Counted from the stretch's first letter, positions 4,124 through 33,408 are shown. The stretch is DNA of 64,000 nucleotides from Candidatus Berkiella sp. (GCA_050252335.1 JBFWLB010000007.1:2261-66260), one strand, 5' to 3'. Notes: generated from the letters alone by a model not told the origin. Translations and numbers: made by a program.

Positions 4124-5224
4124 CTATATCTTAATTTTGATTTTTTCTTGCGGCATAGCACTTAAAAGCACTCGAATCTCTGCAATAGCGTCAGATAAAC
4201 TAGGTCTATCTTTAGGATCTAGCGCCACCATCCTTCGAACCATTTCACACCAAGGGGTATCAGACTGCAATCTCAATTTTTCTAAAATTTCCTGATAATG
4301 TTGCTGATATGCTTGCTTATAATCAACAAATTTTTTATCTCGATATGCATCAAATACATCTTTAGTTAATAATTCATATAATAACATGCCTGCGGCAAAC
4401 ACCTCTGTTTGTTGCGTAAAACTACAAAAAACTGATGTCTCATCCTGTAAAAATAATTCAGGTGCAATATGTGTACCTCTGATTTGTCCTTGTGCTGGCT
4501 TCTCCATATTATTTTTGAGTGCGCATCCAAAATCAATGATATGTACGGATGAAAGCGTTTCCTCTCTTTTAGGTGAATATAAAATATTCCAGAGATTTAA
4601 GTCTCCATGATAGTAACCAAGGCTATGTAAATTTTGTAATGCTTCTAAAACTTGCAACCCAACTTCAAGGCTTTCTGTGTACGAAGAAAGCATATGATTT
4701 TGCTCATAGAGATTTTGTGCATCCACATAGTCAATAAACAAGTAACGCTTACGCATAGCTTGTGCGTTTGTTCGATATAAAGAACCATGAAATCTGCCCA
4801 AAGCTTTATTGACTTGCTCTTCAAGCATAAGCTGCTCTTGTACTGTATTCTCAATCCGAGTTCGTGCTTTTTCTAGCTTTAACTGAATTTCTGCCTCTTC
4901 TCTCTTTTGCGAAATCAATTTTGAATAATATAACGCTTGGCAATACGCAACTGTATCGTCAATACGCTCTATTTTTACAACCACTGTCTGCTGCGAGTGC
5001 AGATCAAGTGCTTTTTTTACCACGCCATAAGCGCCAGCCCCTAAACGTTTCAGCAATGCAAAATAACGCTCATTATTTGCAATGACAATTGAATGCTCCA
5101 TTGCAGCTGTTGTATCAACATGATTCATACTATCTGCACGCTCAACGACAGGAGAGGCTCGATAACGATGAATTTTTAAGATATCCGGGTAACTATTTTT
5201 AATTTTACGCGCAAACTCGAGCAT
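4124..5224 (-). CDS. Eukaryote-like (Hanks) Ser/Thr protein kinase, candidate effector
   Basis: Gly loop LGAGAYGVV, VVVK, HGDLNLWN, IDFG, GTHIAPE, DPKDRPS. Confidence 0.88.
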   Translation of the reverse strand: MLEFARKIKNSYPDILKIHRYRASPVVERADSMNHVDTTAAMEHSIVIANNERYFALLKRLGAGAYGVVKKALDLHSQQTVVVKIERIDDTVAYCQALYYSKLISQKREEAEIQLKLEKARTRIENTVQEQLMLEEQVNKALGRFHGSLYRTNAQAMRKRYLFIDYVDAQNLYEQNHMLSSYTESLEVGLQVLEALQNLHSLGYYHGDLNLWNILYSPKREETLSSVHIIDFGCALKNNMEKPAQGQIRGTHIAPELFLQDETSVFCSFTQQTEVFAAGMLLYELLTKDVFDAYRDKKFVDYKQAYQQHYQEILEKLRLQSDTPWCEMVRRMVALDPKDRPSLSDAIAEIRVLLSAMPQEKIKIKI

Positions 5225-5412: not shown

Positions 5413-6513
5413 ATGCTAAACGGCACAAATATTTCTAAAGATGCAGAAGAAACAAAGCCAAATGATGATACAAACCCTTATGCCATCGTGCCATATGTAG
5501 CTCAACCATCCATAGCACCTACAATACTTGATGCTGAAGCGGATGCTTCCTTTTTTGCCAAATTTCAATATGGATTCACTTTCTACGCTGTGTCTGTTCT
5601 TCCACGTATGTTACCTATTTTGAAAAATAATCGACCTTGGTGGTCTAATATCATTCCAGGTCTTAAGCTTGGCGCAATTCCCATTGCAGACTGGGAACAT
5701 GGCTCTTTATTATTGGAAGAATCATTCTTAGAAAATAGAAAGCTTGGCTTGATTGTTTCTTGTTGCGGAGATTTTGAATTAAAAGGCAATGGGCTAATCA
5801 CACTCACACCCGTATCACCCCACTTTTGGGTAGAGAAAAATGTCACACATTTACAAGTTAAAATGCGTGACTTTGGTGGCGATGTACCATTAGATCAAAT
5901 TCGTATTGCAGTAGAACAAATGCATCAATACATCCAAAGTGGAAAAACCGCTTATGTGCATTGCAAAGCGGGAAGAGGTCGCAGTGTCGTTATGGTGATT
6001 TGCTATCTCATGCAATTCCTGGATTACACACCTGATGAAGCAATCGCCTTTGTACGAGAGAAACGTCCTGAGATCTCTTTGTCAAAAGCACAATATGATT
6101 TTATTGAACAATACAGAGCAGAATATAGATCTGACCTCACACCACTTTATTCAAAAGCTACGCAACAAGACATGATGCTTCGTCCTTTGCATACATCTCC
6201 TTCTTTTGTAAATGCACCTTCTTGGATCGCAAGCACGCTTTGGTATATTGTGACGCTCTTTAATCGCAAGACCATTGACCAACATTGCCGAACCTTGGAA
6301 ACCTATTTAATCCAAGATTTTAGCGCGCTATTAAGAAATTTAAATGCAGGCCAAATACGAACTTTGCATGCAAGTCTGACCGGACAAAGGCCTTATACAC
6401 AAGATCTCGTTTGGTATTACCCCATTTATGCAGCAGGACAAGCAGCCAGAAACAACAACGCGCCACAGATCGAAGAGCTTACTTTAGAATTAGATAAGAA
6501 ATTAAAACTATAA
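5413..6513 (+). CDS. Dual-specificity/PTPMT1-like phosphatase with C-terminal extension
   Basis: CX5R motif HCKAGRGRS; WWSNIIPGLKLGAIP resembles the PTPMT1 N-terminal region; DFGG acid loop. Confidence 0.85.
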   Translation: MLNGTNISKDAEETKPNDDTNPYAIVPYVAQPSIAPTILDAEADASFFAKFQYGFTFYAVSVLPRMLPILKNNRPWWSNIIPGLKLGAIPIADWEHGSLLLEESFLENRKLGLIVSCCGDFELKGNGLITLTPVSPHFWVEKNVTHLQVKMRDFGGDVPLDQIRIAVEQMHQYIQSGKTAYVHCKAGRGRSVVMVICYLMQFLDYTPDEAIAFVREKRPEISLSKAQYDFIEQYRAEYRSDLTPLYSKATQQDMMLRPLHTSPSFVNAPSWIASTLWYIVTLFNRKTIDQHCRTLETYLIQDFSALLRNLNAGQIRTLHASLTGQRPYTQDLVWYYPIYAAGQAARNNNAPQIEELTLELDKKLKL

Positions 6514-18296: not shown

Positions 18297-19817
18297 CTAT
18301 TCCATTTCTACCAATCCGCCTAAAAAATGACAAAATGGTTCAATATTGTGCCTAACACTAGCTTCCTCCAACGCCACCATATAAGCGGTACGTTGCTCAA
18401 CTGGAATAATAGTCCATGAATAGCCACCTGATGCACACATAGTGTTCATCAAGAAGCGACCAATCCGTCCATTACCATCCATATAGGGATGTATATATAC
18501 AAAAAAGAAATGACCAAGCACAATTCTGACAGATGCTTCTTTCTCTTCTTTCAATAAATCGAAAAAAGCCGGCATTAGCTCTCTAACTGCAGCAACATTT
18601 GGTGGAACATGGTGAGACCGGCGTATATAAACCTGGCTTCCTCGATAACCAGCTAAATCTGTTCTTTGCAATATATTTGCTGTAACACTTGGACCAAATA
18701 ACTCACGGTACCAATCGCCATGGGACTGCCATACAACTTGACCTGCATTTTCCCCTTGAATAATTTTTTCTATACTTTGCCTAACTACTTGAAAAGCTTG
18801 CCAATATCCACGCGCAGCTAATGCATCTTTTTGCTTTTGATCATTTTCATTTGTGTCCGGGTTCCAAGTCCCGCTCCTTACCTTTTCAATAAGGTCTAGA
18901 CTAACACGATAACCTTCGATAGAAAGAGAGTGATATGCATCCTGTACATATTTCTCATCAACATTGCTTAAATATGCTGTTACATTCAAAGATTGTAGTG
19001 GAGGGGGTGGAAAATTTCTGAGAATGACTTCCCGCATTTCATGCCACAATATTTTAATGCGACTAACGCAAGGAGATTCTGATCGTTGAGATAATAAAAT
19101 GGGTGCGGCATTTTCAAATGGATCACTTTCTCGCACATCATATTCTGCTAACTGCATAGCTTTAACGATATCATCAGCTATTTTATCTCGACCGATGTTT
19201 CTAAACGCCCCAGCTAAACGTCCTGCAATTGTACTGTGTCCGCCTTCTAGTAAAAGGGATAAAACTTGTGATGCATCATGAATCATAGCAACACTAGCTC
19301 TTGCATCTGTTGGATATTGTCTAAAAAATTTCTGAGAACAATTTAACAATGCTGGAACGAAAGAGTAAATTCTTAGCCCCTTTTTTTCTTCAGTTTCTTT
19401 TTGCTCTGGAAGATTATATCTTACGTTTAAAAATGAGGTTTCAAAGGGCAATGAAATGATTTTATTATCACCTTTTGTAGAATACACTAATAATTGTTTG
19501 GGTACTGTCCAATTATCTGCGTGCAATAATAAGGATTGCTCTGGCGACAAACACCATTCTTGGTTAAATCGTTGATTTAAATAAGATGCACAAAAATCCC
19601 AATACGAAGCATACCAAGCCGTGCTTTCTCCGGTGGATTCGTCTGGGCGCGATGGTATATACCACCCCTTCATCACTTCTTGGATAAAACCATTTTTTTG
19701 CAGGCGCTCTCTATGCACACGAGTCAAATCCCGAGATCTAATTGCCACAAGTCCTTGGTCTTGTAATACTTTTAACGATTCAAGTGACTGAGCTAATTTC
19801 TCGGATGGGGTTGCCAT
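18297..19817 (-). CDS. Fic-domain protein with extended N-terminus
   Basis: HPYMDGNGRIGR Fic motif; inhibitory SLSIEG (S/TxxxEG) motif. Confidence 0.92.
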   Translation of the reverse strand: MATPSEKLAQSLESLKVLQDQGLVAIRSRDLTRVHRERLQKNGFIQEVMKGWYIPSRPDESTGESTAWYASYWDFCASYLNQRFNQEWCLSPEQSLLLHADNWTVPKQLLVYSTKGDNKIISLPFETSFLNVRYNLPEQKETEEKKGLRIYSFVPALLNCSQKFFRQYPTDARASVAMIHDASQVLSLLLEGGHSTIAGRLAGAFRNIGRDKIADDIVKAMQLAEYDVRESDPFENAAPILLSQRSESPCVSRIKILWHEMREVILRNFPPPPLQSLNVTAYLSNVDEKYVQDAYHSLSIEGYRVSLDLIEKVRSGTWNPDTNENDQKQKDALAARGYWQAFQVVRQSIEKIIQGENAGQVVWQSHGDWYRELFGPSVTANILQRTDLAGYRGSQVYIRRSHHVPPNVAAVRELMPAFFDLLKEEKEASVRIVLGHFFFVYIHPYMDGNGRIGRFLMNTMCASGGYSWTIIPVEQRTAYMVALEEASVRHNIEPFCHFLGGLVEME

Positions 19818-19826
19818 TTCATGTAT

Positions 19827-19892
19827 TAATCCTAGGTTATTATGTTGTTTTAATTATAGGTTATTATGTTGTGCTAATTCTAGGTTATTATG
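19827..19892. repeat. Three direct repeats, 24-bp period, just upstream of the Fic gene
   Basis: taggttattatg at 19833, 19857 and 19881. Confidence 0.85.
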
Positions 19893-20088
19893 CGATAAAT
19901 AAAAATAAATACATAAATATCAATAAATTATGAAATTTAATATATAGAAAAATTCTTTTTTAAAAATGAAATATTATGCGAAAAAGAGGATTTAGTGGTG
20001 ATTAATATAGCTGTACATACAACTAATTATCGCATCTTATTAGGTGGAGATTAAACTAGGGTACTAGTTTAGCCGGCTACACATCATG

Positions 20089-20167
20089 AAAGCCCGTAAC
20101 TTCTTAAAATTAAAGGCTTTTTAGTCGTTCTAGTTTTTCGTTGGATTTAAAACTGGGGCGGCGGGAA
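20089..20167 (-). repeat. Distal att site: displaced, damaged tmRNA 3' fragment plus duplicated downstream arm
   Basis: ggcggcgggaa (20157-20167) = 33067-33077; tgga is missing relative to ssrA; homology continues ~65 bp (ggctttttagtcgttct...tttcgttggatttaaa) with 32995-33059. Confidence 0.88.
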
Positions 20168-20408
20168 CTGATTTAAGCACCTATCTAATTGATATTATAT
20201 GACTTTATCAAAACACATTTTTCACGATACTACTATCAGTACAGCTAAAATGAAAAGTCATGCATTTTAACATGGTGTACTTACAACAAAATGGGCTGGA
20301 TGTTTACCCCCCAAGATGTCCTTTTTTAGTTAGCTCGTGTAATATACTTAATATTTAGACTAAGGTGTTCTAGGCGGTACTATATACCCCTAGGGGGTAC
20401 TGTAAAAG

Positions 20409-23400
20409 GTGAAGTTCAACGAAGATTCAAGAGTGAAGATACCCACAATCCTGCATTTGATGCGGTTGGGTTATGGCTATCTGTCTCTAAAAGACCCAAA
20501 GCTCAAACGGGACGAATCTACAAACATCTTTACAGAAATCTTTTTACAAAGCATAAAGCGAATCAACCCTTCCCTAAACGACCTAGAAGCCCAGCAGCTA
20601 CTCTCTGACGTCTCGCTTACCCTAGAGAACGAAGATCTAGGCAAAGCCTTCTATGAAAAGCTCATCGACAAATCTGGTGTTCGCCTCATAGACTTAGAAG
20701 ACTTTAATAACAACTCATTTAATGTTGTCACTGAGCTAACCTACAAAAAAGACGAAGAGGAATTCCGACCGGATATTACTCTGCTCATTAATGGCCTGCC
20801 ATTAGCATTTATAGAAGTTAAGCGACCAAACAACCGCGATGGTATATTAGCTGAGCACAAGCGTATACAAACACGCTTTCAGAACAAGAAGTTTAGAAAT
20901 TTCATTAACATTACCCAGCTAATGGTGTTCTCCAATAATATGGAGTATGACGACAGCACGCCCAGGCCTATTGAGGGGGCATTTTATGCTACGCCATCTT
21001 ATAGCAAGCCCACATTCAATTATTTTCGTGAAGAGCATGTTTTTGACTTAAATGTTTTACTTTCAGATGTGGATGACGAAGAAGAAACTGCATTACTTAA
21101 AGATACTAACTTGCTAAGCATAAAGCAGTCACCAGAATTTGCAAATAACAAAAGTCCTGATACCCCCACAAACCGTATTTGTACTTCACTATTCCAGCGT
21201 GAACGAATTGCTTTTTTACTTGAGTTTGGCTTGGCCTATGTGAAAAAACGAATAGGTGTTGAAAAACATATAATGCGTTATCCGCAAATTTTCGCCACTA
21301 TGGCTATAGAGCAAAAACTTTCTGAGGGTGTAAAAAAAGGCATTATCTGGCACACGCAAGGTAGTGGTAAAACAGCATTGGCTTACTACAATGTAAAATA
21401 TCTCTCTGACTACTTTCAGAATCAAAACATTATCGCTAAATTCTATTTTATTGTTGACAGACTCGATTTGCTTGTTCAAGCAGGCCGTGAGTTTAGATCG
21501 CGTGGATTAGTTGTACACAACATCAATTCAAAAGAAGATTTTGCCAAGGACATCAAAAAAACTACGGCCATACACAACGTTAGTGGCAAAGCTGAAATTA
21601 CAGTCGTCAATATTCAAAAATTTAAGGATGATCCAAACGTTATAAAAAGCGGTGACTATAACGTCAATATTCAGCGAGTATTCTTTTTAGATGAGGTTCA
21701 TCGTAGCTATAATCCAAAAGGCAGCTTTTTAGCCAATTTGGAGCAAGCCGACCGTGATGCAATCAAGATTGGTTTAACTGGTACACCGCTGTTGGGTGAA
21801 GAATATAACTCCAAATTGTTGTTCGGTAATTACATTCACAAATACTATTACAACGCATCCATTAAAGATGGGTATACACTGCGATTGATTCGTGAGGACA
21901 TTGAAACCAGTTATAAACTTGATTTGCAAAAGACTCTCGCAGCAATCTATGAAGACACTGAGATTCTAAAAGGGAGCGGCAACAAAAAACTAGTTTATGC
22001 ACACAAAAGATTTGTAGAGCCAATGCTCGATTACATCATAAAGGATTTTGAGCAAGCCCGTATATCCTTCAACGATAACACTATAGGCGGTATGGTTATA
22101 TGTGATTCTTCAGAGCAAGCTAAAATGATGTTTGATATTTTTCAAGCACAATACGCTAAACCACAAGGCCTAGAGGAGCAGTCAGGATCTGATAACTTGA
22201 CCTCAGAACCAGCCTCATATAAAGCCAAGGAGAAACTAAATAGCCAGGTTACTAATGCCGCCGTTATCTTGCACGATGTTGAAACTAAGGATGAACGCAA
22301 AAAACTAGTCGAAGACTTCAAAGAAGGTAAAATTGACCTCTTGTTCGTATATAACATGTTGCTTACCGGATTCGACTCTCCACGCCTTAAAAAGCTATAC
22401 ATAGGGCGTGTAATTAAAGCCCACAATCTATTGCAAGCCCTTACGCGTGTAAACCGTACCTATCACAATTTTAACTATGGCTATGTGGTGGACTTTGCCG
22501 ATATAGAAAGTGAATTTGAGAAAACAAACAGAGACTATTTTAGAGAACTTCAATCTGAGCTAGGTGATGAAATTGAGCACTATAGTAATCTGTTTAAATC
22601 TCAAGATGAAATCTTAAAAGAAATACAAGAGATCAAAGAAACCCTATTCCATTTTGACACCACTAATGCCGAAATATTTTCGGGTCAAATTTCGCAGATC
22701 AATTCCCGTAGTGAAATGTTAAAAATCACACGCGCCTTAAACAATGCCAAGAGCCTTTATAATCTTATTCGCTTGGCAGGCGATTATGAAATGCTTGAAA
22801 GGCTAGACTTTCAAATGCTCACTGTATTATCTAGGGAGGCAGATAGGCGTCTAGCCCTTATCAATACCAAAGAAGCGTTAGAAAGTAGCGTTGATACCTC
22901 AAACTTGCTTAACGTTGCCTTAGAAGATGTTATCTTTGCGTTCACCAAAGTCAGTGAAGAAGAAATGATTTTAGCTGATGAGCTAAAAAACACGCTTCAA
23001 AGAACACGTGAAGGCCTAGGTGAGAATTTTGATCCCCGTGATCCTGAGTTTGTTTCACTAAAAGAAGAACTTGAACGTCTATTTAAGAAGAAAAACTTAA
23101 GCGAGATCACCAAAGAGCAGATGGAAAGCAACATTAAGGCTTTAAATGATATATATAAACGGGCCAAAGAGCTAGAAAGAAAAAACCAGCTATTAAGGGC
23201 TAAATATGACAATGATGAAAAATATGCTCGTTTACATAAACGTCTCATGGAAAAAGATCCTTTAACGGATAGTGAGAGCAAACTTTTTGAGGCCCTAAAA
23301 AGCTTAAAAACTGAAGTTGACAATAAAATACAACAGAACTCAAAAATGTTAGAAAATGAAAACTATGTTAAAAAAATGGTTACTAAGCTTGTTATCAATC

Positions 23401-23516
23401 AGTTCAGAAACAAGCACATACCTTTAACCCCAGATGCAACCAGACGCATCAACGGTTTAGTGGTAAATGAATATATGAACGAATACTATGGGGGAGCAGG
23501 TACAGCTCGTCTGTAA
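20409..23516 (+). CDS. hsdR: Type I restriction enzyme subunit R
   Basis: RPD...IEVK nuclease motif, HTQGSGKT Walker A, DEVH, GLTGTP, MLLTGFD. Confidence 0.95.
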   Translation: MKFNEDSRVKIPTILHLMRLGYGYLSLKDPKLKRDESTNIFTEIFLQSIKRINPSLNDLEAQQLLSDVSLTLENEDLGKAFYEKLIDKSGVRLIDLEDFNNNSFNVVTELTYKKDEEEFRPDITLLINGLPLAFIEVKRPNNRDGILAEHKRIQTRFQNKKFRNFINITQLMVFSNNMEYDDSTPRPIEGAFYATPSYSKPTFNYFREEHVFDLNVLLSDVDDEEETALLKDTNLLSIKQSPEFANNKSPDTPTNRICTSLFQRERIAFLLEFGLAYVKKRIGVEKHIMRYPQIFATMAIEQKLSEGVKKGIIWHTQGSGKTALAYYNVKYLSDYFQNQNIIAKFYFIVDRLDLLVQAGREFRSRGLVVHNINSKEDFAKDIKKTTAIHNVSGKAEITVVNIQKFKDDPNVIKSGDYNVNIQRVFFLDEVHRSYNPKGSFLANLEQADRDAIKIGLTGTPLLGEEYNSKLLFGNYIHKYYYNASIKDGYTLRLIREDIETSYKLDLQKTLAAIYEDTEILKGSGNKKLVYAHKRFVEPMLDYIIKDFEQARISFNDNTIGGMVICDSSEQAKMMFDIFQAQYAKPQGLEEQSGSDNLTSEPASYKAKEKLNSQVTNAAVILHDVETKDERKKLVEDFKEGKIDLLFVYNMLLTGFDSPRLKKLYIGRVIKAHNLLQALTRVNRTYHNFNYGYVVDFADIESEFEKTNRDYFRELQSELGDEIEHYSNLFKSQDEILKEIQEIKETLFHFDTTNAEIFSGQISQINSRSEMLKITRALNNAKSLYNLIRLAGDYEMLERLDFQMLTVLSREADRRLALINTKEALESSVDTSNLLNVALEDVIFAFTKVSEEEMILADELKNTLQRTREGLGENFDPRDPEFVSLKEELERLFKKKNLSEITKEQMESNIKALNDIYKRAKELERKNQLLRAKYDNDEKYARLHKRLMEKDPLTDSESKLFEALKSLKTEVDNKIQQNSKMLENENYVKKMVTKLVINQFRNKHIPLTPDATRRINGLVVNEYMNEYYGGAGTARL

Positions 23517-23563
23517 TCTAACCTTGAAGCCTGGTTTCAGGCCATCTACCTAGAGAAGAAAAA

Positions 23564-25198
23564 ATGACAGAATCTAAACAATTTGAACAACAAACCAAAA
23601 TGCTCATAGATGATTTAAAAACTGTCTGCGCCAACTATGGTTTGGGCAACGATGGTAATGAATTTAAAATTATCGCTCAAGTATTTTTGTATAAATTTCT
23701 GAACGACAAGTTCGTTTATGAAATTAAGCAATTAGACAAAAAGATCGCCAAGGCAAAAAAATGGGAAGATGCGCTTAACAAATTAGATAAAGATGAATAT
23801 GAAATGTTAATGATGCAGCTAAGCGAAAGTACAGCTCATATAAGGCAAGAGCATTTTATTTCAACTTTATTTGCAAAGCAAAACGAACCAAATTTTGCTG
23901 ATATTTTTGATAACACGTTAGTTGATATTGCCCGTGACAATAGTGATATCTTCTCAGTGCTCACGGCAGGTGGTGAAAAAATAGTACTATTTGATACTTT
24001 AAGTAGATATGTCACTGACAACCGCGATGATTTTTGTAGGGCTATCATTAATAAACTCACAGGCTTTAGCTTCGAACATATTTTTCATCAAAAGTTTGAT
24101 TTTTATGCCACTATTTTTGAGTATCTGATTAAAGATTACAATACTAACAGTGGCGGAAAATATGCAGAATACTTCACCCCACATGCTGTATCTAAAATTA
24201 TGGCGCGTTGCTTAGTCCCCAAAAAGAAAGGGGCAAAAGTTCAAAATGTGACCTGTTACGATCCTTCAGCAGGCTCTGGCACCTTGCTAATGAACCTAGC
24301 CCATGCGATAGGCGAAGACAAATGCACCATCTATTCTCAAGATATCTCACAGAAATCCTCAAGTTTATTGCGTTTAAATCTAATCCTTAACGATTTAGTA
24401 CACTCCATACACAATATAATTCAGGGTAACACTTTACGGGATCCCTTCCATAAAAAGGATAATGGCGAGTTAGCACAATTTGACTATATCGTTTCAAATC
24501 CGCCATTTAAACTCGACTTTTCTGGCTACCGTGATGAACTAGAAAGCAAAGAAAATCATGACCGGTTTTTTGCAGGTGTCCCCAGTGTACCGAAAAAGAA
24601 AAAAGAGTCCATGGCAATTTATTTAATGTTCCTACAGCATATTATCTATTCATTAAAGGCTAAAGGTAAGGCCGCTGTTGTTGTACCAACAGGGTTTATT
24701 ACCGCTCAAAGTGGAATCGATAAAGCTATTCGACAAAAACTGGTAGATGAGAAAATGCTTGCAGGGGTGGTAAGTATGCCTTCAAATATTTTTGCCAATA
24801 CTGGTACCAATGTTTCGATTATATTTATCGATAAAACAAATAAAGAAGATGTGGTATTGATAGATGCCTCAAATCTTGGTGAAACCATTAAGGATGGCAA
24901 AAATCAAAAAACTGTTTTGTCACATGCTGAAGAAGATCAGATTATTAACACGTTTAATGATAAAAAGCCGGTTGATGATTTCTCAGTGGTGGTTAGCTAT
25001 GCCGATATTGCATCGGAAAACTATTCACTAAGTGCAGGACAGTATTTTGAGGTAAAAATCGAGCATGTAGATATTTCACAAAAGGAATTCTTGAATAGGC
25101 TGAATGAGTTTGAGGTGAACATTAGACAGTTATTTAAAGATTCTAAAAGCCTAGAAAATGAGATTATTCAAAATATTAAAGGATTAAATTTTAAATGA
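23564..25198 (+). CDS. hsdM: Type I R-M N6-adenine methyltransferase subunit M
   Basis: EYFTP, YDPSAGSG motif I, NPPF motif IV. Confidence 0.95.
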   Translation: MTESKQFEQQTKMLIDDLKTVCANYGLGNDGNEFKIIAQVFLYKFLNDKFVYEIKQLDKKIAKAKKWEDALNKLDKDEYEMLMMQLSESTAHIRQEHFISTLFAKQNEPNFADIFDNTLVDIARDNSDIFSVLTAGGEKIVLFDTLSRYVTDNRDDFCRAIINKLTGFSFEHIFHQKFDFYATIFEYLIKDYNTNSGGKYAEYFTPHAVSKIMARCLVPKKKGAKVQNVTCYDPSAGSGTLLMNLAHAIGEDKCTIYSQDISQKSSSLLRLNLILNDLVHSIHNIIQGNTLRDPFHKKDNGELAQFDYIVSNPPFKLDFSGYRDELESKENHDRFFAGVPSVPKKKKESMAIYLMFLQHIIYSLKAKGKAAVVVPTGFITAQSGIDKAIRQKLVDEKMLAGVVSMPSNIFANTGTNVSIIFIDKTNKEDVVLIDASNLGETIKDGKNQKTVLSHAEEDQIINTFNDKKPVDDFSVVVSYADIASENYSLSAGQYFEVKIEHVDISQKEFLNRLNEFEVNIRQLFKDSKSLENEIIQNIKGLNFK

Positions 25199-26502
25199 AA
25201 TTGTTAAAATTAAAATCTGTTTCAAATGTTATAACGGGGTTTCCATTTAAAGGTAATGAATATACTGATCGAGGAGTTAGGACAGTTAGAGGTGAAAATG
25301 TTACTGAAGGTAGGCTTCGTTGGGATTCTACAAAACATTGGAATCAACCTTTTGATAAATTTGAGGAATACAGTTTAAAAGCTGACGATATAGTAGTTGG
25401 CATGGATGGGTCAAAAGTTGGGAAAAATAAGGCTAGAATATTTGAAAAAGACTTACCGCTATTACTTGCTCAACGAGTCGCATGTATAAGAGCTAAAAAA
25501 GGAACTGACCAAGTTTTTTTATATTACTGTATAAATAATAATAGATTTGAGGATTATGTTTACCGTATTCAAACTGGATCGGCTGTACCCCATATTAGCA
25601 AAACTCAAATTGAAGAATATTCAATTCCAGCCTTTGATCTTGACACGCAAAAAAAATTATCTAAGACTCTTTCTGATCTAGACAGAAAAATAGAAATCAA
25701 CAACAAAATCAACACCAAACTAGAAGCCATGGCCAAGCTCATCTACGAATATTGGTTTGTACAATTCGACTTCCCTGATGCTAAAGGCAAACCTTACAAA
25801 TCCTCTGGTGGCAAAATGGTTTATAACGAAGCGCTAAAGTATGAAATTCCTGAAGGATGGGAAGCTAAAGAGCTAGCTTCAATATTAAAATGTAATTATT
25901 CTTCAATTGGAAAGAATGGCTCGTTTGATGTGATTGAATATTTGGATACAGGAAGTTTAACAAAGAATGTCGTTAAAGGCACTGAACGAATATATCCTTT
26001 AGAAGATAAAGTACCCAGTAGGGCGAAAAGAATCGTTGGTAAAGATGATATTTTATACTCTACAGTGCGGCCAAACTTGTGCCACTATGGAATAATCAAA
26101 AAACCATTACATAACATGGTGGCTTCAACTGGATTTGCGCAGCTTGCTAGTAGAATAGGCTGGATTAGCAACGATTTAATTTATACGTTTTTAACCTCAC
26201 CTTGGGTTACGAGCAAGTTACACCAAATAGCTACATTATCGGTATCTGCATACCCTTCAATATCACCAAATAATATTTTGGAGTTAAATATAGCTTTACC
26301 AAAAGATAAAAAATTTTTTGAGCCTATCAATTTAATGTTTGCCACAATCTATTCAAAAATTTCACTTAATCAACAAGAGAATATAGAATTGTCCGCGTTA
26401 AGGGACTGGCTCCTCCCCATGCTAATGAACGGGCAAGTTACAGTGAAAGGAACGCACCATAGTAAAAAAGGGAAGTTAAAACATGGCAGCGCAATACTCT
26501 AA
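25195..26502 (+). CDS. hsdS: Type I R-M specificity subunit S
   Basis: Two TRDs separated by the conserved WFVQFDFPD...EIPEGW spacer; LRDWLLPMLMNGQV C-terminal motif; ATGA overlap with hsdM. Confidence 0.93.
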   Translation: MKLLKLKSVSNVITGFPFKGNEYTDRGVRTVRGENVTEGRLRWDSTKHWNQPFDKFEEYSLKADDIVVGMDGSKVGKNKARIFEKDLPLLLAQRVACIRAKKGTDQVFLYYCINNNRFEDYVYRIQTGSAVPHISKTQIEEYSIPAFDLDTQKKLSKTLSDLDRKIEINNKINTKLEAMAKLIYEYWFVQFDFPDAKGKPYKSSGGKMVYNEALKYEIPEGWEAKELASILKCNYSSIGKNGSFDVIEYLDTGSLTKNVVKGTERIYPLEDKVPSRAKRIVGKDDILYSTVRPNLCHYGIIKKPLHNMVASTGFAQLASRIGWISNDLIYTFLTSPWVTSKLHQIATLSVSAYPSISPNNILELNIALPKDKKFFEPINLMFATIYSKISLNQQENIELSALRDWLLPMLMNGQVTVKGTHHSKKGKLKHGSAIL

Positions 26503-27679
26503 CCGTCATTTTTTCAGAAAAACACCGAATTGGTATCTGGCTAAATATTTTGAAGACAAGGGTATTCAGCTTGGCATAAAGGTGTACGAACTACAGGAAA
26601 ATGATGATGAAGCCTTGCAAAATGCCTTGAACCAACTACAGCCCGACCAAATAGCGAGCATCGAAGCAGAGTTTCAAGATGTAAATGCCTTGGCCTGTGA
26701 GGGAGGTATTATAGCTCTGGTTGACGAAGCAAGTTTTCACAATGACCAAGGCTTTATTAAAGAAATTGCTGCTATAGATGGCATGCACGCAAAAGCTATG
26801 TATGCATTTCTCAATAAACCTCAATATTGGCGAGGTGCGGCGATGTTTTTACATGCCGACAATGTAAGTCCATCATATTGGAAGAAACGCAACGATTTCC
26901 TCAATTTACCACCACACCTTGAAAATGATGATACCGACGCTTTTGCCGAAGCAATTAGTGAGTATTTTTCAGGTAAGGAAGGAAGGGGTAAAAATTGTAT
27001 TGTTGAGTCCTATCGCCGCAACCAAAAAGAATATCTCTTTGCTCATCCAGAGGATTTTGGGCAAACCGCTATTGAATGGGTAGGTGGAACTTTAACAAAC
27101 CAAGCGCATCATCCAGCTTTTGAGATTATTTTTGTATACTGTGAAACGGAAGGTTCGCTAGACATATACGCCCCTAGAAATGGGAAAGCAGTACCAGATT
27201 TACAGGCACTATTTGCTAAACATATTTTAAAGCTAGATAGTTTGTCCGAATGGCAAAAGGATCAACGTGTTTATGAGTTAAACACCATATTAGAGAAAGG
27301 TTTTGAATTTAAAATAGAGCCAACGTCAGGCATTTCTAGCGTATTAATCACTAGCCTTCGAGTAACGTTAAAAGAGGATCGAAAAAAGCGCATTATGGTG
27401 GAAGCTGATGCGTATAAAGATGATAAAGCCGTCTTTAGATTACTAGATCGATTGAATTTGCCCCCGTATGACGTAACCCAACTAAGTTTAAAAGTAACCT
27501 TTGAGCCAGTGGGTGGTGCAAAGGCCAAATCTAAGCGAGTAAATATTACTTACCCCAATTCATGTGCGTTGAATCACGATGGCAATGATCTAAAAATACG
27601 CCAAATGCTTGCTCGGTCTGGGCTTGAGCCCAAAGCGGTCGAGGTTAAAACGGTTGAGCCAGAAGCGATAATGGCTTAA
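26483..27679 (+). CDS. Hypothetical island protein (orfA, 398 aa)
   Basis: Long ORF with SD aaggga, overlapping the hsdS end by 20 nt; no family recognised. Confidence 0.8.
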   Translation: MAAQYSNRHFFRKTPNWYLAKYFEDKGIQLGIKVYELQENDDEALQNALNQLQPDQIASIEAEFQDVNALACEGGIIALVDEASFHNDQGFIKEIAAIDGMHAKAMYAFLNKPQYWRGAAMFLHADNVSPSYWKKRNDFLNLPPHLENDDTDAFAEAISEYFSGKEGRGKNCIVESYRRNQKEYLFAHPEDFGQTAIEWVGGTLTNQAHHPAFEIIFVYCETEGSLDIYAPRNGKAVPDLQALFAKHILKLDSLSEWQKDQRVYELNTILEKGFEFKIEPTSGISSVLITSLRVTLKEDRKKRIMVEADAYKDDKAVFRLLDRLNLPPYDVTQLSLKVTFEPVGGAKAKSKRVNITYPNSCALNHDGNDLKIRQMLARSGLEPKAVEVKTVEPEAIMA

Positions 27680-28471
27680 ATGACACTTGATGAAAATCAG
27701 CTATTAATCGAAATATTAACCCGCTTAAGCACTGTTGGCAATTCTATAAGCCTTAGTTTTGATGAGGTTGAGCAATGGCCTAGCGGCTTGTTAAATACGC
27801 TTGTGCAGGCAGGATTGCTTGTTAAGGACGTACAAGCTCAGTCACTTCAGTGTACAGGTTGTGAGTATGGCTGTTTTATGCCGGTAGTTTTTGCTGAGGA
27901 CACCCTTCGGGCTTTTATTGTGTGTGATCATTCTGAACAGCAAGATCATATGGGGCGTATTGCAGTTAATTTATCACGACTTAGTCAGTGGCAGCTAAAT
28001 ACCAAACAAGTGGCTACTGTGCTTGCAAAGCTATTGAAGGTGGAAGCTAAGCCCTTGTATCAAGCAAAAACTGGTAGCTATGCCCTTGGCATGCTTAAAA
28101 GCCCAAAGGGGCGATGTGCGGCGGTATTAGCCTCCACACCTCTGTCTGTTGTAATCAATCAGCATTCAGTACTTATTAGCGACTTGTTATATATTGAAGC
28201 TAATCGCTTGGTTATTGATTCTCAAAAAATTGATACTGTTCTTCACGCCAAACCATTGAGTAAAGGAAAAGTTTACACTGCCCATTCTGATAAACAGCAA
28301 GATAGAAAGTGGGCTACTCAAGCAATGTATGCTGATTGGCAAGACCAGTATAAAAAGCTAAAGCGGGAGCACCCAACAAAATCTGACCTGTGGATTTCAC
28401 GTCAAATATCAAAGATGGCTATTGGTAAAGGTAAAAGCCCAGAAACCATTAGAAAAAATATGAAAGACTAA
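27680..28471 (+). CDS. Hypothetical Cys-cluster protein with possible C-terminal HTH (orfB, 263 aa)
   Basis: Starts immediately after the orfA stop; CTGCEYGC...CD cluster; basic C-terminus SRQISK...PETIRKNM. Confidence 0.75.
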   Translation: MTLDENQLLIEILTRLSTVGNSISLSFDEVEQWPSGLLNTLVQAGLLVKDVQAQSLQCTGCEYGCFMPVVFAEDTLRAFIVCDHSEQQDHMGRIAVNLSRLSQWQLNTKQVATVLAKLLKVEAKPLYQAKTGSYALGMLKSPKGRCAAVLASTPLSVVINQHSVLISDLLYIEANRLVIDSQKIDTVLHAKPLSKGKVYTAHSDKQQDRKWATQAMYADWQDQYKKLKREHPTKSDLWISRQISKMAIGKGKSPETIRKNMKD

Positions 28472-28476
28472 AAAAG

Positions 28477-28623
28477 TTGTGCGGAAATTTTTCGCACAAA
28501 TAACCTATTGATTGACAAAGAATTTGTTCGCTAGGATTCGTTTATTTATTATTGTTTCTTTAGCCCGTGTCGTTGAATCCATTGCACTTGTGGCATTGGT
28601 TGCCTGCCTTTTTTCGCACAAAT
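28477..28623. promoter_or_regulatory. Putative operator sites upstream of alpA
   Basis: Palindrome ttgtgcgg-N7-tcgcacaa (28477-28499) and 14-bp direct repeat tttttcgcacaaat (28488, 28610). Confidence 0.5.
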
Positions 28624-28674
28624 CGCCCAATCATCATGGAACCTCATTCCCAGGAACGTTAAAGAGGTTTCAAA

Positions 28675-28875
28675 ATGTCGCATAAAATTTTAAGACTTCC
28701 CGAGGTGATTAAACAAACCGGTTTATCACGTAGTTCAATTTATCTGCGTATAGCTAACAATGAATTCCCACAACCTATTTCATTAGGTGGGCGTTCAGTT
28801 GGATGGTTACAGCAAGAAATAGATGACTGGTTACTCAACAAAATTGAAACAAGCCGAATCAACGACAATGGCTAA
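28675..28875 (+). CDS. alpA: AlpA family regulator/excisionase
   Basis: ILRLPEVIKQTGLSRSSIY...FPQPISLGGRSVGW. Confidence 0.93.
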   Translation: MSHKILRLPEVIKQTGLSRSSIYLRIANNEFPQPISLGGRSVGWLQQEIDDWLLNKIETSRINDNG

Positions 28876-29314
28876 TTATAATCCCAACAAGGTAAAGATC
28901 AATCGTAGCTATACCTATGAAGAATTGGCTGCTGTGTTTGGAGTGCATAAAAACACGGTAGCCTCTTGGGTAAATAATGGCTTGCCTTGCATGAAAGATA
29001 TGCGGCCGTACCTTATTTTGGGGGCGGATGCAAAGCGATATTTACAAATGAGACAACAAGCAAAAAAACACAAATGTAAGTCAAATGAATTTTATTGCAT
29101 GCGATGTAAAAAGCCAACACGAGCCGCTGAGAACTTCGTGGAATATTTTCCACTGACTGCAACCAAGGGGCGTTTGAGAGGCTTCTGCTTAGCATGCGAA
29201 GGAGTCGTGAATAAGTTTATTGCCAATACGAGTTTAGAAAAATATTCACTGATTTTTGATCTCGTAAAGCCGAAGGGATTAGAACATATAAATGACAGTG
29301 ATAACCCTCTCTAA
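28868..29314 (+). CDS. HTH domain protein with Cys cluster
   Basis: YTYEELAAVFGVHKNTVASWV HTH; YCMRC...CLAC; overlaps the alpA stop. Confidence 0.8.
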   Translation: MANYNPNKVKINRSYTYEELAAVFGVHKNTVASWVNNGLPCMKDMRPYLILGADAKRYLQMRQQAKKHKCKSNEFYCMRCKKPTRAAENFVEYFPLTATKGRLRGFCLACEGVVNKFIANTSLEKYSLIFDLVKPKGLEHINDSDNPL

Positions 29315-29344
29315 AACAGTGGTCTTAAATAGTGAGTTTAAACA

Positions 29345-30445
29345 ATGAGAAGACACAATGCTAATAATGAGCGAATCAAGCGCAAATACTTAGTATTTTT
29401 AAAACAAGCCAAGGGTCAAAATGAAGCTACTATTGATGCTGTGGCTAAAGCGATTGCCCGTTTTGAAAGCTATAACCAGTACAAAGATTTCAAGTCGTTT
29501 CACTATGAGCAGGCTATTGGTTTTAAAAAATACTTGGCTAAACAAAAGCATCATAAAACAGGTAAGCCACTAAGCTTATCTACTTTAAATGGCACGGTGC
29601 GACTTTTAAAAGCATTTCTTGAGTGGCTGTCACAAGAATCTGGTTATAAATCCCGTATTAAGTATTCTGATGCTCAATACTTTAACCTGTCGGAAAAGGA
29701 CACCCGTACCGCAAAAGCTAAACGCCAACAGCCTGTAGCCACAATAGAGCAGATAAAGCACGTGCTGAGAGTGATGCCTAGTACCACCCCCATTCAAAAA
29801 CGTGATAGAGCTTTAATTGCATTCACGCTATTAACAGGCGCTAGAGATAGCGCAATTGCCTCTATGAAGTTAAAGCACGTCGATTTTAATGCTGACACTG
29901 TTTATCAAGATGCTAGGGAAGTTAACACCAAGTTCAGTAAAACCTTTGTAACATGCTTTTTCCCCGTTGGTGATGATGTGCGCGCAATAGTTTTTGAGTG
30001 GGTGACATACCTTAAGACAGAGTGCTTGATGGGTAATGAGGATCCCCTATTCCCCAAAACAAAAATGATCCAAGATGAAGATAATGGCTTTAAGGCTGAT
30101 GGATTAACCAATGAACACTGGGTTAGCGCTGCGGCGATACGTAAGATTTTTAAATATGCATTTGAACTAGCAGATATGCCTTATTTTAATCCTCACAGTT
30201 TTCGTAATACCTTAGCAGCTTTAGGTGAAAGCTTGTGCCAGTCCCCTGAGGAATTTAAAGCATGGAGTCAAAATCTAGGCCATGAGGGCGTACTGACTAC
30301 ATTTTATAGTTATGGCGAAGTGCAAGAGAATAGGCAGGTAGATATTTTTAAACAGTTGAGGCAACCGCGTGCGAATAAGTTGGTTGCTAATGTGGATGAA
30401 TTGGCAAAAGCTGTTGCAAGAGAGATAGTGAAGCAGGGAACTTAG
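29345..30445 (+). CDS. Tyrosine recombinase (second integrase-family gene)
   Basis: TGAR, PHSFR, LGH and C-terminal Tyr catalytic residues present. Confidence 0.9.
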   Translation: MRRHNANNERIKRKYLVFLKQAKGQNEATIDAVAKAIARFESYNQYKDFKSFHYEQAIGFKKYLAKQKHHKTGKPLSLSTLNGTVRLLKAFLEWLSQESGYKSRIKYSDAQYFNLSEKDTRTAKAKRQQPVATIEQIKHVLRVMPSTTPIQKRDRALIAFTLLTGARDSAIASMKLKHVDFNADTVYQDAREVNTKFSKTFVTCFFPVGDDVRAIVFEWVTYLKTECLMGNEDPLFPKTKMIQDEDNGFKADGLTNEHWVSAAAIRKIFKYAFELADMPYFNPHSFRNTLAALGESLCQSPEEFKAWSQNLGHEGVLTTFYSYGEVQENRQVDIFKQLRQPRANKLVANVDELAKAVAREIVKQGT

Positions 30446-30833: not shown

Positions 30834-31226
30834 ATGAAGAAAGAACAAATCGAATATATTGCGTTTGAAGGATCAGCTTATACTATTGAGTGGTATTACA
30901 ACGAATCTAACCGGTCGGATGTGCTGGAAGATTTTGAAGAACTTTCAACCGGGGATAAGAAAAATTTATTTATGCTGTTCGAAAGAATGGGGAATGACGG
31001 AGTAATTTCGAATAAAACGAAATTTAGGAATGAAGGCGATGAAATTTGGGCCTTTAAACCGAAACAAGGTCGTTTTCTATGTTTCTTTCACGTGGGCAAA
31101 AAGATTATTGTGCTCAGCTCTTACAAAAAACAAGGTGATAAGCTGCCAAAAAAGGAAAAGAAAAAAGCTGAAAATCGCATGGCAGATTATAAAGCTAGGG
31201 TTAAAAAAGGTGATTATTATGGCTAA
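30834..31226 (+). CDS. RelE/HigB-like (Gp49-type) toxin
   Basis: FRNEGDEIWAFKPKQGRFLCFF...IIVLSSYKKQGDKLP; precedes an overlapping HTH gene. Confidence 0.75.
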   Translation: MKKEQIEYIAFEGSAYTIEWYYNESNRSDVLEDFEELSTGDKKNLFMLFERMGNDGVISNKTKFRNEGDEIWAFKPKQGRFLCFFHVGKKIIVLSSYKKQGDKLPKKEKKKAENRMADYKARVKKGDYYG

Positions 31227-32990: not shown

Positions 32991-33028
32991 AAAAAAAGCC
33001 TATAACTCGTTAAAATTATAGGCTTTTT
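32991..33028 (-). terminator. Intrinsic terminator downstream of ssrA
   Basis: aaaaaaagcctataa-N10-ttataggcttttt hairpin with T tracts. Confidence 0.7.
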
Positions 33029-33059
33029 AGTCGTTCTCGTATTTCGTTGGATTTAAATC

Positions 33060-33408
33060 TGGTGGAGGCGGCGGGAATCGAACCCGCGTCCGAAGCATTT
33101 ACGCTGAAGGGTCTACATGTTTATCTAGACCATTATTTTAACTGGCCACACCCGGCCTAGCAGGGTATAAACAGCGAGTCTCTGAGTTTTAACCAAGGAC
33201 TTCGAAACAAAGCCATTGGCGATCTTGTAAAAGTTACCCCCTGTCTAACCGTACAAGCCCGGCTAGGAGAGAGGCTATCGCTTAAGCAGCGATTGCGTAG
33301 TTTTCGTCGTTTGCAATTATGACGATTGCAGTTAAGTTTAACGAGATTAATTGCCTACTCGACATGCACCTTAAGTTTCAAGTACCCCGTCGAAGCCTGG
33401 TCGCCCCC
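33060..33408 (-). ncRNA. ssrA: tmRNA; tag ANDENYAIAA* at 33282-33314
   Basis: 5' GGGGGCGACCAGGCTTCGAC, 3' GGGTTCGATTCCCGCCGCCTCCACCA, in-frame proteolysis tag. Confidence 0.98.

Follow-up and report, generated by a model that had tools for sequence, protein, structure and literature searches.

The sequence analysed here is a stretch of 64,000 nucleotides (nt) from Candidatus Berkiella sp. (GCA_050252335.1, JBFWLB010000007.1:2261-66260), below called the window. In this window, the genes of a type I restriction-modification (R-M) system are followed by two tightly coupled genes, orfA and orfB, the whole array occupying positions 20,409 to 28,471. A first-pass annotation of the window, made from the sequence alone, had taken the pair for an extension of the R-M operon and for a new defence or accessory module. 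As described below, the two genes very probably belong instead to the backbone of a mobile island that carries the R-M genes as a passenger, and we propose with moderate confidence that they control the promoter of the next gene, alpA. The central part of the locus has the following composition:

20409-23516, + strand: hsdR, type I restriction subunit, assigned to the cargo; HSDR_N, SWI2_SNF2, ResIII and T1R_D3-like domains, PADLOC REase_I
23564-25198, + strand: hsdM, type I methyltransferase, assigned to the cargo; N6_Mtase 3.6e-66, PADLOC MTase_I 3e-274
25195-26502, + strand: hsdS, specificity subunit with a 17-residue C-terminal read-through, assigned to the cargo; Methylase_S, PADLOC Specificity_I 2e-85
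26483-27679, + strand: orfA, first backbone gene, 398 amino acids (aa), member of a large uncharacterised family; proposed partner or sensor for OrfB
27680-28471, + strand: orfB, second backbone gene, 263 aa; proposed DNA-binding regulator of the alpA promoter
28472-28674: spacer of 203 nt between orfB and alpA
28675-28875, + strand: alpA, AlpA-family regulator, excisionase-like; Phage_AlpA 1.8e-21
28868-29314, + strand: HTH148, a 148-aa protein with a helix-turn-helix (HTH) domain of the HTH_17 family (1.5e-4, below the Pfam cut-off; phrog_141 3e-6)
29345-30445, + strand: Int366, a 366-aa tyrosine recombinase without an arm-binding domain, the backbone recombinase; Phage_integrase 9e-11

The layout from hsdR to orfB was confirmed. 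All five genes lie on the + strand, the expected Pfam domains and strong PADLOC type I models in HsdR, HsdM and HsdS bear out the R-M assignment, and the ATG of orfB begins at the base directly after the TAA stop codon of orfA. Coordinates and translation also agree that hsdS continues past its usual GQVTVK end into orfA with an overlap of 20 nt. The translation of the window's HsdS extends for 17 residues beyond ...NGQVTVK, and this extension (GTHHSKKGKLKHGSAIL) is read from the ribosome-binding region of orfA. In relatives with the same type of R-M system (loci L001, L002 and L007), hsdS ends in ...VTVKD and a stop codon, and a spacer of 25-35 nt, containing a ribosome-binding site, separates it from orfA. 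As these relatives retain the hsdS stop codon and the spacer, the overlap is not a sign of operon coupling. It appears to be specific to this genome, where the stop codon of hsdS was apparently lost locally, and is very likely incidental.

The R-M genes, orfA and orfB are all enclosed by the boundaries of a larger element, which is delimited by these features:

20089-20175, no strand: left boundary, direct repeat; displaced copy of the sequence downstream of ssrA plus ~17 nt of the 3' end of the transfer-messenger RNA (tmRNA), the attachment (att) repeat
32995-33079, no strand: right boundary, direct repeat; att repeat overlapping the tmRNA 3' end
33060-33408, - strand: tmRNA gene (ssrA), the integration target; ARAGORN, tag peptide ANDENYAIAA
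31650-32894, - strand: P4-type integrase with an arm-binding domain, adjoining ssrA; Arm-DNA-bind_3, Phage_int_M and Phage_integrase
30834-31226, + strand: Gp49/HigB-type toxin gene of an accessory toxin-antitoxin module between the two recombinases; Pfam Gp49 1.1e-12

The two copies of a 68-nt direct repeat (20089-20156 and 32995-33062) are 88% identical, and their alignment reaches into the tmRNA 3'-end sequence GGCGGCGGGAA, covering its final ~17 nt. The repeats bracket ~12.9 kb, with everything from hsdR through orfB inside. Because a tmRNA gene, an adjacent P4-type integrase and an att repeat on both sides of this 12.9-kb segment are found together, we consider it an island, and hsdRMS is in all likelihood the cargo of this tmRNA-integrated element.

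A comparison of gene neighbourhoods from ten independent genomes and metagenome contigs (L001, L003, L006, L007, L009, L011, L014, L015, L016 and L017) shows which genes accompany orfA and orfB. In a tblastn synteny table, the block orfA-orfB-AlpA-HTH148-Int366 was syntenic in every complete locus, with cross-locus identities of 56-83% for orfA, 38-75% for orfB, 55-83% for AlpA and 60-88% for Int366. orfA and orfB adjoined tightly everywhere: at one extreme they overlap by 26 nt, at the other they are 12 nt apart. What lies upstream of orfA, on the other hand, was interchangeable. L001, L002 and L007 carry the type I R-M family of the window, and L009 has a type I system of a different family and gene order. 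A type ISP enzyme, with or without Mrr, is found in L011, L016 and L017, an 802-aa protein of no known kind in L015, and remnants disrupted by an insertion sequence (IS) in L014. In the context of family member P0190, a type I R-M system and GmrSD lie on the strand opposite to orfA. The P4-type integrase varies as well, being 72-89% identical in tmRNA-sited islands and only 25-35% in tRNA-sited ones (L009, L014 and L016). Since both the cargo and the targeting integrase vary around the conserved block, we regard the five genes as the stable core of these islands, and we conclude with high confidence that orfA and orfB are island backbone and not part of the R-M system.

The first-pass annotation thus stands in describing an uncharacterised coupled pair in a mobile island, and falls in making that pair part of the R-M operon. 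In the gene-neighbourhood analysis of homologs that it had proposed, orfA and orfB always precede alpA while the cargo differs. There is no consistent association of the pair with hsdR, hsdM and hsdS: L011, L015, L016, L017 and L019 (a more distant locus described below) depart from it, as does the context in which the R-M genes are on the opposite strand.

Some of the loci are disrupted. In the closest named relative, Legionella antarctica (AP022839.1, L007 4626-8703), hsdM is split by an IS21-family insertion whose rve/Mu-transposase C and IstB genes lie between HsdM fragments of 159 and 403 aa; the R-M cargo is probably inactive there, with the backbone intact. L014 (5339-11984) is a decaying island copy in which orfB carries a frameshift and an ISL3 transposase lies amid R-M fragments, and in L005 (11968-13275), another decaying copy, hsdR fragments and a YgjP-like gene replace the alpA-recombinase part 3' of orfB. 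A HigB gene is found in L017 at the position equivalent to that in the window. As to the two tyrosine recombinases of the island, the arm-less Int366 belongs to the core and the P4-type enzyme is swapped together with the integration site.

Neither protein of the pair has homology to an annotated family. OrfA and OrfB had no matches in Pfam, NCBIfam or PADLOC, the last with PADLOC-DB v2 defence models at E <= 0.01, and a Pfam scan of 34 divergent members of the orfA family, including variants of 610 and 667 aa, was equally empty. The earlier observation that OrfA has no recognisable motif is therefore correct. Its family is large: a word-indexed search gave 588 homologs, with 60-83% identity among the 120 listed and the name 'hypothetical' wherever there was one, and an exhaustive profile search gave 1,868 representatives at the 50%-identity level. 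The mean column identity of the orfA alignment is 74%. Among PHROGs, OrfA matches solely phrog_37634 (1e-26), a family without an assigned function. OrfB has 70 detectable homologs. Their alignment contains four invariant cysteines (C58, C61, C65 and C82), and the C-terminus, which finishes with ETIRKNMK, is basic, helical and conserved. The Cys cluster and basic tail that had been noted from the single sequence are thus upheld by the alignment and by the AlphaFold2 model.

The AlphaFold2 model of OrfB was confident (mean predicted local distance difference test score, pLDDT, 86.7; predicted template modelling score, pTM, 0.75), and a Foldseek search of the PDB with it returned nothing significant (best E 0.15). 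The model of OrfA was moderate (pLDDT 75.6). It gave weak matches to the N-terminal region of CENP-N in the PDB with E values of 7e-3 to 4e-2, TM scores of 0.19-0.25 when normalised by the query and up to 0.42 when normalised by the target, and a probability of up to 0.98 for an N-terminal domain entry. An RdgC/CENP-N-like DNA-binding fold is a tentative candidate for OrfA. No significant match to the OrfA model was found among the BFVD viral structures, and searches of PDB sequences with the OrfA and OrfB profiles were empty. The PADLOC and Foldseek checks that had been suggested for the pair have hence yielded no known family and no significant fold match. Neither sequence nor fold pointed to an enzymatic or effector domain in either protein, be it a nuclease, ATPase, TIR, protease or primase.

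The linkage of the pair to alpA extends far beyond the close relatives. Starting from P0337, a distant family member 26% identical to OrfA, we reached divergent contexts in which orfA identity is down to 26-39% and the order orfA-like, orfB-like, alpA is nevertheless kept. In L019, the genes are a P4-type integrase, a 110-aa protein, an orfA-like protein (410 aa), a 266-aa protein, AlpA, ParA, a 538-aa protein, a DUF2857 protein and AcaB; there is no R-M cargo adjacent. In L020, a 1,162-aa cargo protein is followed by an orfA-like protein (401 aa), a 259-aa protein, AlpA and a DnaG-type zinc-ribbon protein. The 266-aa and 259-aa proteins are homologs of OrfB, with hhalign E values of 4.8e-55 and 2e-29, respectively. 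By these gene orders, the pair stays with alpA across minimal islands, ICEclc-type conjugative elements and primase-bearing elements.

In L019, the genes 3' of alpA are related to those of ICEclc, the integrative and conjugative element of Pseudomonas knackmussii B13: ParA is 46%, BisD 34% and BisC, which carries DUF2857, 22% identical. In ICEclc, bisR lies directly upstream of alpA and its product was shown experimentally to be a potent activator of the alpA promoter (PMC7423338). BisR has 251 aa and no Pfam domains, starts the transfer-competence cascade, and stands, according to the authors, as the prototype for a new family of regulators (Carraro et al. 2020, PMC7423338). Because orfA and orfB occupy the ICEclc bisR slot in L019, we considered OrfB as a candidate BisR. 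Authentic ICEclc DNA was recovered by using a published primer (table in PMC7423338) as an exact probe in a metagenome collection, which led to contig L023. Six ICEclc primers match this contig exactly and it encodes the 251-aa BisR, AlpA, ParA, BisD and BisC in the published order. The accession of ICEclc BisR is CAE92957.1.

The candidate homology was rejected. A profile of OrfB aligned to BisR with an hhalign probability of 0.24% (E 0.26), OrfA did not match BisR, and the OrfB-like protein of L019 gave a BLASTP E value of 0.71 against it. The AlpA of the window is 42% identical to that of ICEclc (E 2e-15). The setting of orfB is that of bisR all the same: it encodes 263 aa with no Pfam match, lies 203 nt upstream of alpA and has the same orientation, and this is likewise so in all related loci. 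On sequence comparison, the pair thus fills the BisR slot by non-orthologous displacement. The two nodes share a ~250-aa protein without Pfam domains directly upstream of, and co-oriented with, alpA. They differ in that ICEclc has one gene, bisR, where there are two coupled genes here, and in that alpA is followed by parA-shi-bisDC there and by a minimal HTH-recombinase set here. The regulators upstream of BisDC are already known to vary among members of the ICEclc family (PMC10732049, PMC13393423).

The spacer between orfB and alpA contains two conserved elements:

28477-28499, no strand: palindrome TTGTGCGGAAATTTTTCGCACAA, operator-like or a hairpin, directly 3' of the orfB stop codon
28615-28629, + strand: CGCACAAATCGCCCA, a tandem pair of half-sites located 60 nt 5' of the alpA ATG; candidate operator for the alpA promoter

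The palindrome is kept in all eight aligned spacers (8/8) and also in L019 and L020, and the tandem pair uses the same half-site, CGCMCAA. A strict 15-nt pattern, CGCMCAAAWCGCMCA, was found once per locus and each time on the + strand. It precedes the alpA ATG by 60 nt in six independent elements; the distance is 62 nt in L019, and it is 80 nt in both L020 and L021. Elsewhere in 421 kb, searched on both strands, it occurs zero times, the naive expectation being ~0.006. In the remaining loci, degenerate copies of the motif are visible. The motif is absent from the bisR-alpA spacer of authentic ICEclc (L023), so that it accompanies orfA and orfB and not AlpA as such. A scan for promoter and terminator consensus sequences performed no better than on shuffled sequence and was not used.

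We therefore propose, with the moderate confidence stated at the outset, that orfA and orfB are an undescribed pair of regulators that controls the alpA promoter and hence the excision of the island. We base this on the linkage of the pair to alpA, which is invariant across very different elements, on its taking the place of BisR in the ICEclc-type core of L019, on the co-occurrence of the motif with the pair together with its fixed position, and on the Cys cluster and basic tail of OrfB. OrfB would be a zinc-binding protein with a basic helical tail that acts in a complex with its translationally coupled partner, OrfA. The two proteins would bind the CGCMCAA half-sites, both in the palindrome at the orfB stop codon and in the tandem pair before alpA, and this binding would set the transcription of the alpA operon and with it the excision and transfer of the island. 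The pair would thereby take the circuit position that BisR has in ICEclc without being related to it. It may activate, like BisR, or repress, like Stl of the Staphylococcus aureus pathogenicity islands (SaPIs); either is consistent with the arrangement. The suggestion in the first-pass annotation of a regulator that governs island induction comes close to this proposal, except for the input it had envisaged: nothing in the analysis links orfA and orfB to R-M status. In the literature searched, there is no description of a pair of this type.

Several points speak against this regulatory role. No recognised DNA-binding domain was detected in OrfA or OrfB by Pfam, NCBIfam, PDB sequence profiles or Foldseek. 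The motif is a putative binding site by virtue of its position and co-occurrence with the pair, and it may just as well be a target of AlpA variants co-evolving with orfA and orfB, or represent iterons of an origin. In the source metagenome, where the island is on a single contig of uniform depth, neither an excision junction nor an empty site was found. The sequencing runs that contain this sequence are all DNA metagenome runs. Finally, the cargo is co-oriented with orfA in most loci and only 25-40 nt away from it, so that read-through transcription from the cargo, and hence some coupling to it, is possible.

The iteron interpretation leads to a different role for the pair, namely that of a replication or maintenance module of the excised island, with OrfA or OrfB as an initiator acting on CGCMCAA sites at an origin. 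Small islands such as phage-inducible chromosomal islands (PICIs) and P4 as a rule replicate once they have excised, no other gene of this island is a candidate for replication, and the spacer of the window holds four half-sites in ~150 nt with an A+T-rich middle. That middle, however, is neither conserved nor A+T-rich in hosts with a higher GC content, and the fixed distance of the tandem sites to the alpA start fits a promoter element better. Furthermore, no primase, helicase, Rep or P-loop signature was detected in the pair by sequence or fold, and the pair is also present in elements with machinery of their own, such as the DnaG-type primase of L020 and the ICEclc-type core of L019. We consider a replication role unlikely.

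Alternatively, the pair might mediate an interaction with a helper phage, by sensing it or interfering with it, with HTH148 serving as a small-terminase-like packaging factor. AlpA is a helper-induced activator in Gram-negative PICIs. OrfA has its match to phrog_37634 (1e-26), and HTH148 has a weak small-terminase-like match in PHROGs. Transduction by phages has been demonstrated for islands at tmRNA genes with an integrase, AlpA and defence cargo (PMC12595487). Against this, OrfA had no tblastn match among 50,697 phage records, its model had no significant counterpart among viral structures, the pair also occurs in an element of the conjugative type, and no capsid or packaging genes accompany it. 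As a separate function, this is distinctly unlikely; it does overlap with the regulation of alpA that we favour, as a regulator that senses a phage would satisfy both.

The interpretation with which the analysis began, a two-gene anti-phage defence or R-M accessory system, is improbable and in our judgement the weakest reading of the locus. It draws on the position of the pair next to, and in the orientation of, defence cargo in most loci, on the lack of any family match, and on a homolog of OrfA in a plasmid, where it lies beside a ubiquitin-like conjugation cluster. However, the pair remains the same as the defence genes beside it change, whereas defence genes in hotspots behave in the opposite way. 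Its linkage to alpA is strict even in the ICEclc-type L019 with no adjacent R-M genes, the R-M cargo of one element is on the opposite strand, and none of the expected signs, such as a PADLOC model or an enzymatic or effector domain by sequence or fold, is present. An addiction, stabilisation or establishment module (toxin-antitoxin-like or anti-restriction), finally, would suit a tightly coupled gene pair in a mobile element, stabilisation genes being common on islands, yet it is very improbable given that a Gp49/HigB-type module is already in the island, that 398 and 263 aa and a column identity of 74% in OrfA are atypical of toxin-antitoxin pairs, and that there is no toxin-like domain.

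The plasmid homolog just mentioned was the single match of OrfA in tblastn searches of plasmid records. It is distant (24% identity) and located on the Candidatus Tenderia electrophaga plasmid CP013100.1 (L018 10214-12661). The gene next to it is not a homolog of orfB; the order is the orfA homolog, an unrelated 305-aa protein, a multiubiquitin-JAB-ThiF cluster and a tyrosine recombinase.

By its gene content, the island as a whole belongs to a known broad kind, namely non-self-transmissible elements integrated at tRNA or tmRNA genes with a P4-type integrase, AlpA and defence cargo. Among these are the tmRNA/tRNA defence islands I23, I44 and I55 (Zhao et al. 2025, PMC12595487) and the 'phage defence elements' of Hussain et al. 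2021 cited there. Like the I55-type islands (PMC12595487), it is inserted at the tmRNA 3' end between direct repeats, encodes AlpA and a tyrosine integrase of the P4 type, carries defence cargo and has no transfer genes. However, I23, I44 and I55 are 23-55 kb long compared with 13 kb here, the att sequence differs, the I55-type islands share a 23-bp 3'-end sequence, and no helper is known for the island in the window. The cores differ too: that of the I55 type consists of YqaJ, RadC, an inovirus Gp2-like protein and an HTH protein, and the one described here of orfA, orfB, HTH148 and a second recombinase. Compared by description, the Pfam results for island open reading frames (ORFs) of at least 100 aa plus alpA included no YqaJ, RadC or inovirus Gp2-like domain.

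P4-like satellites and Gram-negative PICIs likewise have a P4-type integrase, AlpA, a defence hotspot and tRNA/tmRNA sites. They differ in possessing a primase or replicase, Psu/Delta/Sid and capsid-redirecting genes, which are lacking here; in the same set of island ORFs, Pfam revealed no domain of a primase, helicase, capsid protein or terminase. The Gamma-Mobile-Trio (GMT) islands encode GmtY, GmtZ and the StbA-like GmtX, have inverted-repeat sites and contain no AlpA (bioRxiv 10.1101/2023.03.28.534373). Like the present element, they are small islands of Gammaproteobacteria with few backbone genes, including two tyrosine recombinases, and variable defence cargo. The published description sets them apart from our island, which has AlpA and a tRNA/tmRNA target. 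Going by that description, the trio is a different one and the resemblance is an analogy only.

Four further observations concern the surroundings and HTH148. Just outside the left att repeat, a 506-aa Fic-domain protein is encoded on the - strand (18297-19893; Pfam Fic 1.5e-13, PADLOC SoFic 3.5e-21), and three tandem 24-nt repeats (19822-19893) are found immediately upstream of its start codon. Two divergent 366-aa ORFs are located ~15 kb to the left of the island (4124-5224, - strand, and 5413-6513, + strand). HTH148 itself is possibly a recombination directionality factor. In the source metagenome run X1, the assembler word depth over HTH148 (28920-29390) was up to 36 compared with ~10 elsewhere in the island, which suggests that related elements from other organisms are present in the same sample.

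These findings advise caution in reading conserved genes beside R-M systems as new defence systems, for in this locus it is the R-M genes that travel as the passenger and the conserved genes that form the vehicle. A wider, tentative and rather doubtful extension of the regulatory proposal is that the pair is a signal-sensing master switch common to defence islands, ICEclc-type elements and primase-bearing satellite-like elements, in which OrfA would sense a cue and release or activate the zinc-binding OrfB at the alpA promoter. If this is true, the cue may be phage infection or DNA damage, for example, and the island would excise and spread its defence cargo when it is needed; the pair would then do the work of BisR/TciR or of SaPI Stl without being homologous to them. 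Small defence islands at tRNA and tmRNA genes are a major route for the exchange of immune genes, and the decision to excise is largely unexplained. A common, unannotated gene pair with a candidate operator, at the position held by a proven activator in ICEclc, would offer a cheap experimental entry point into this question.

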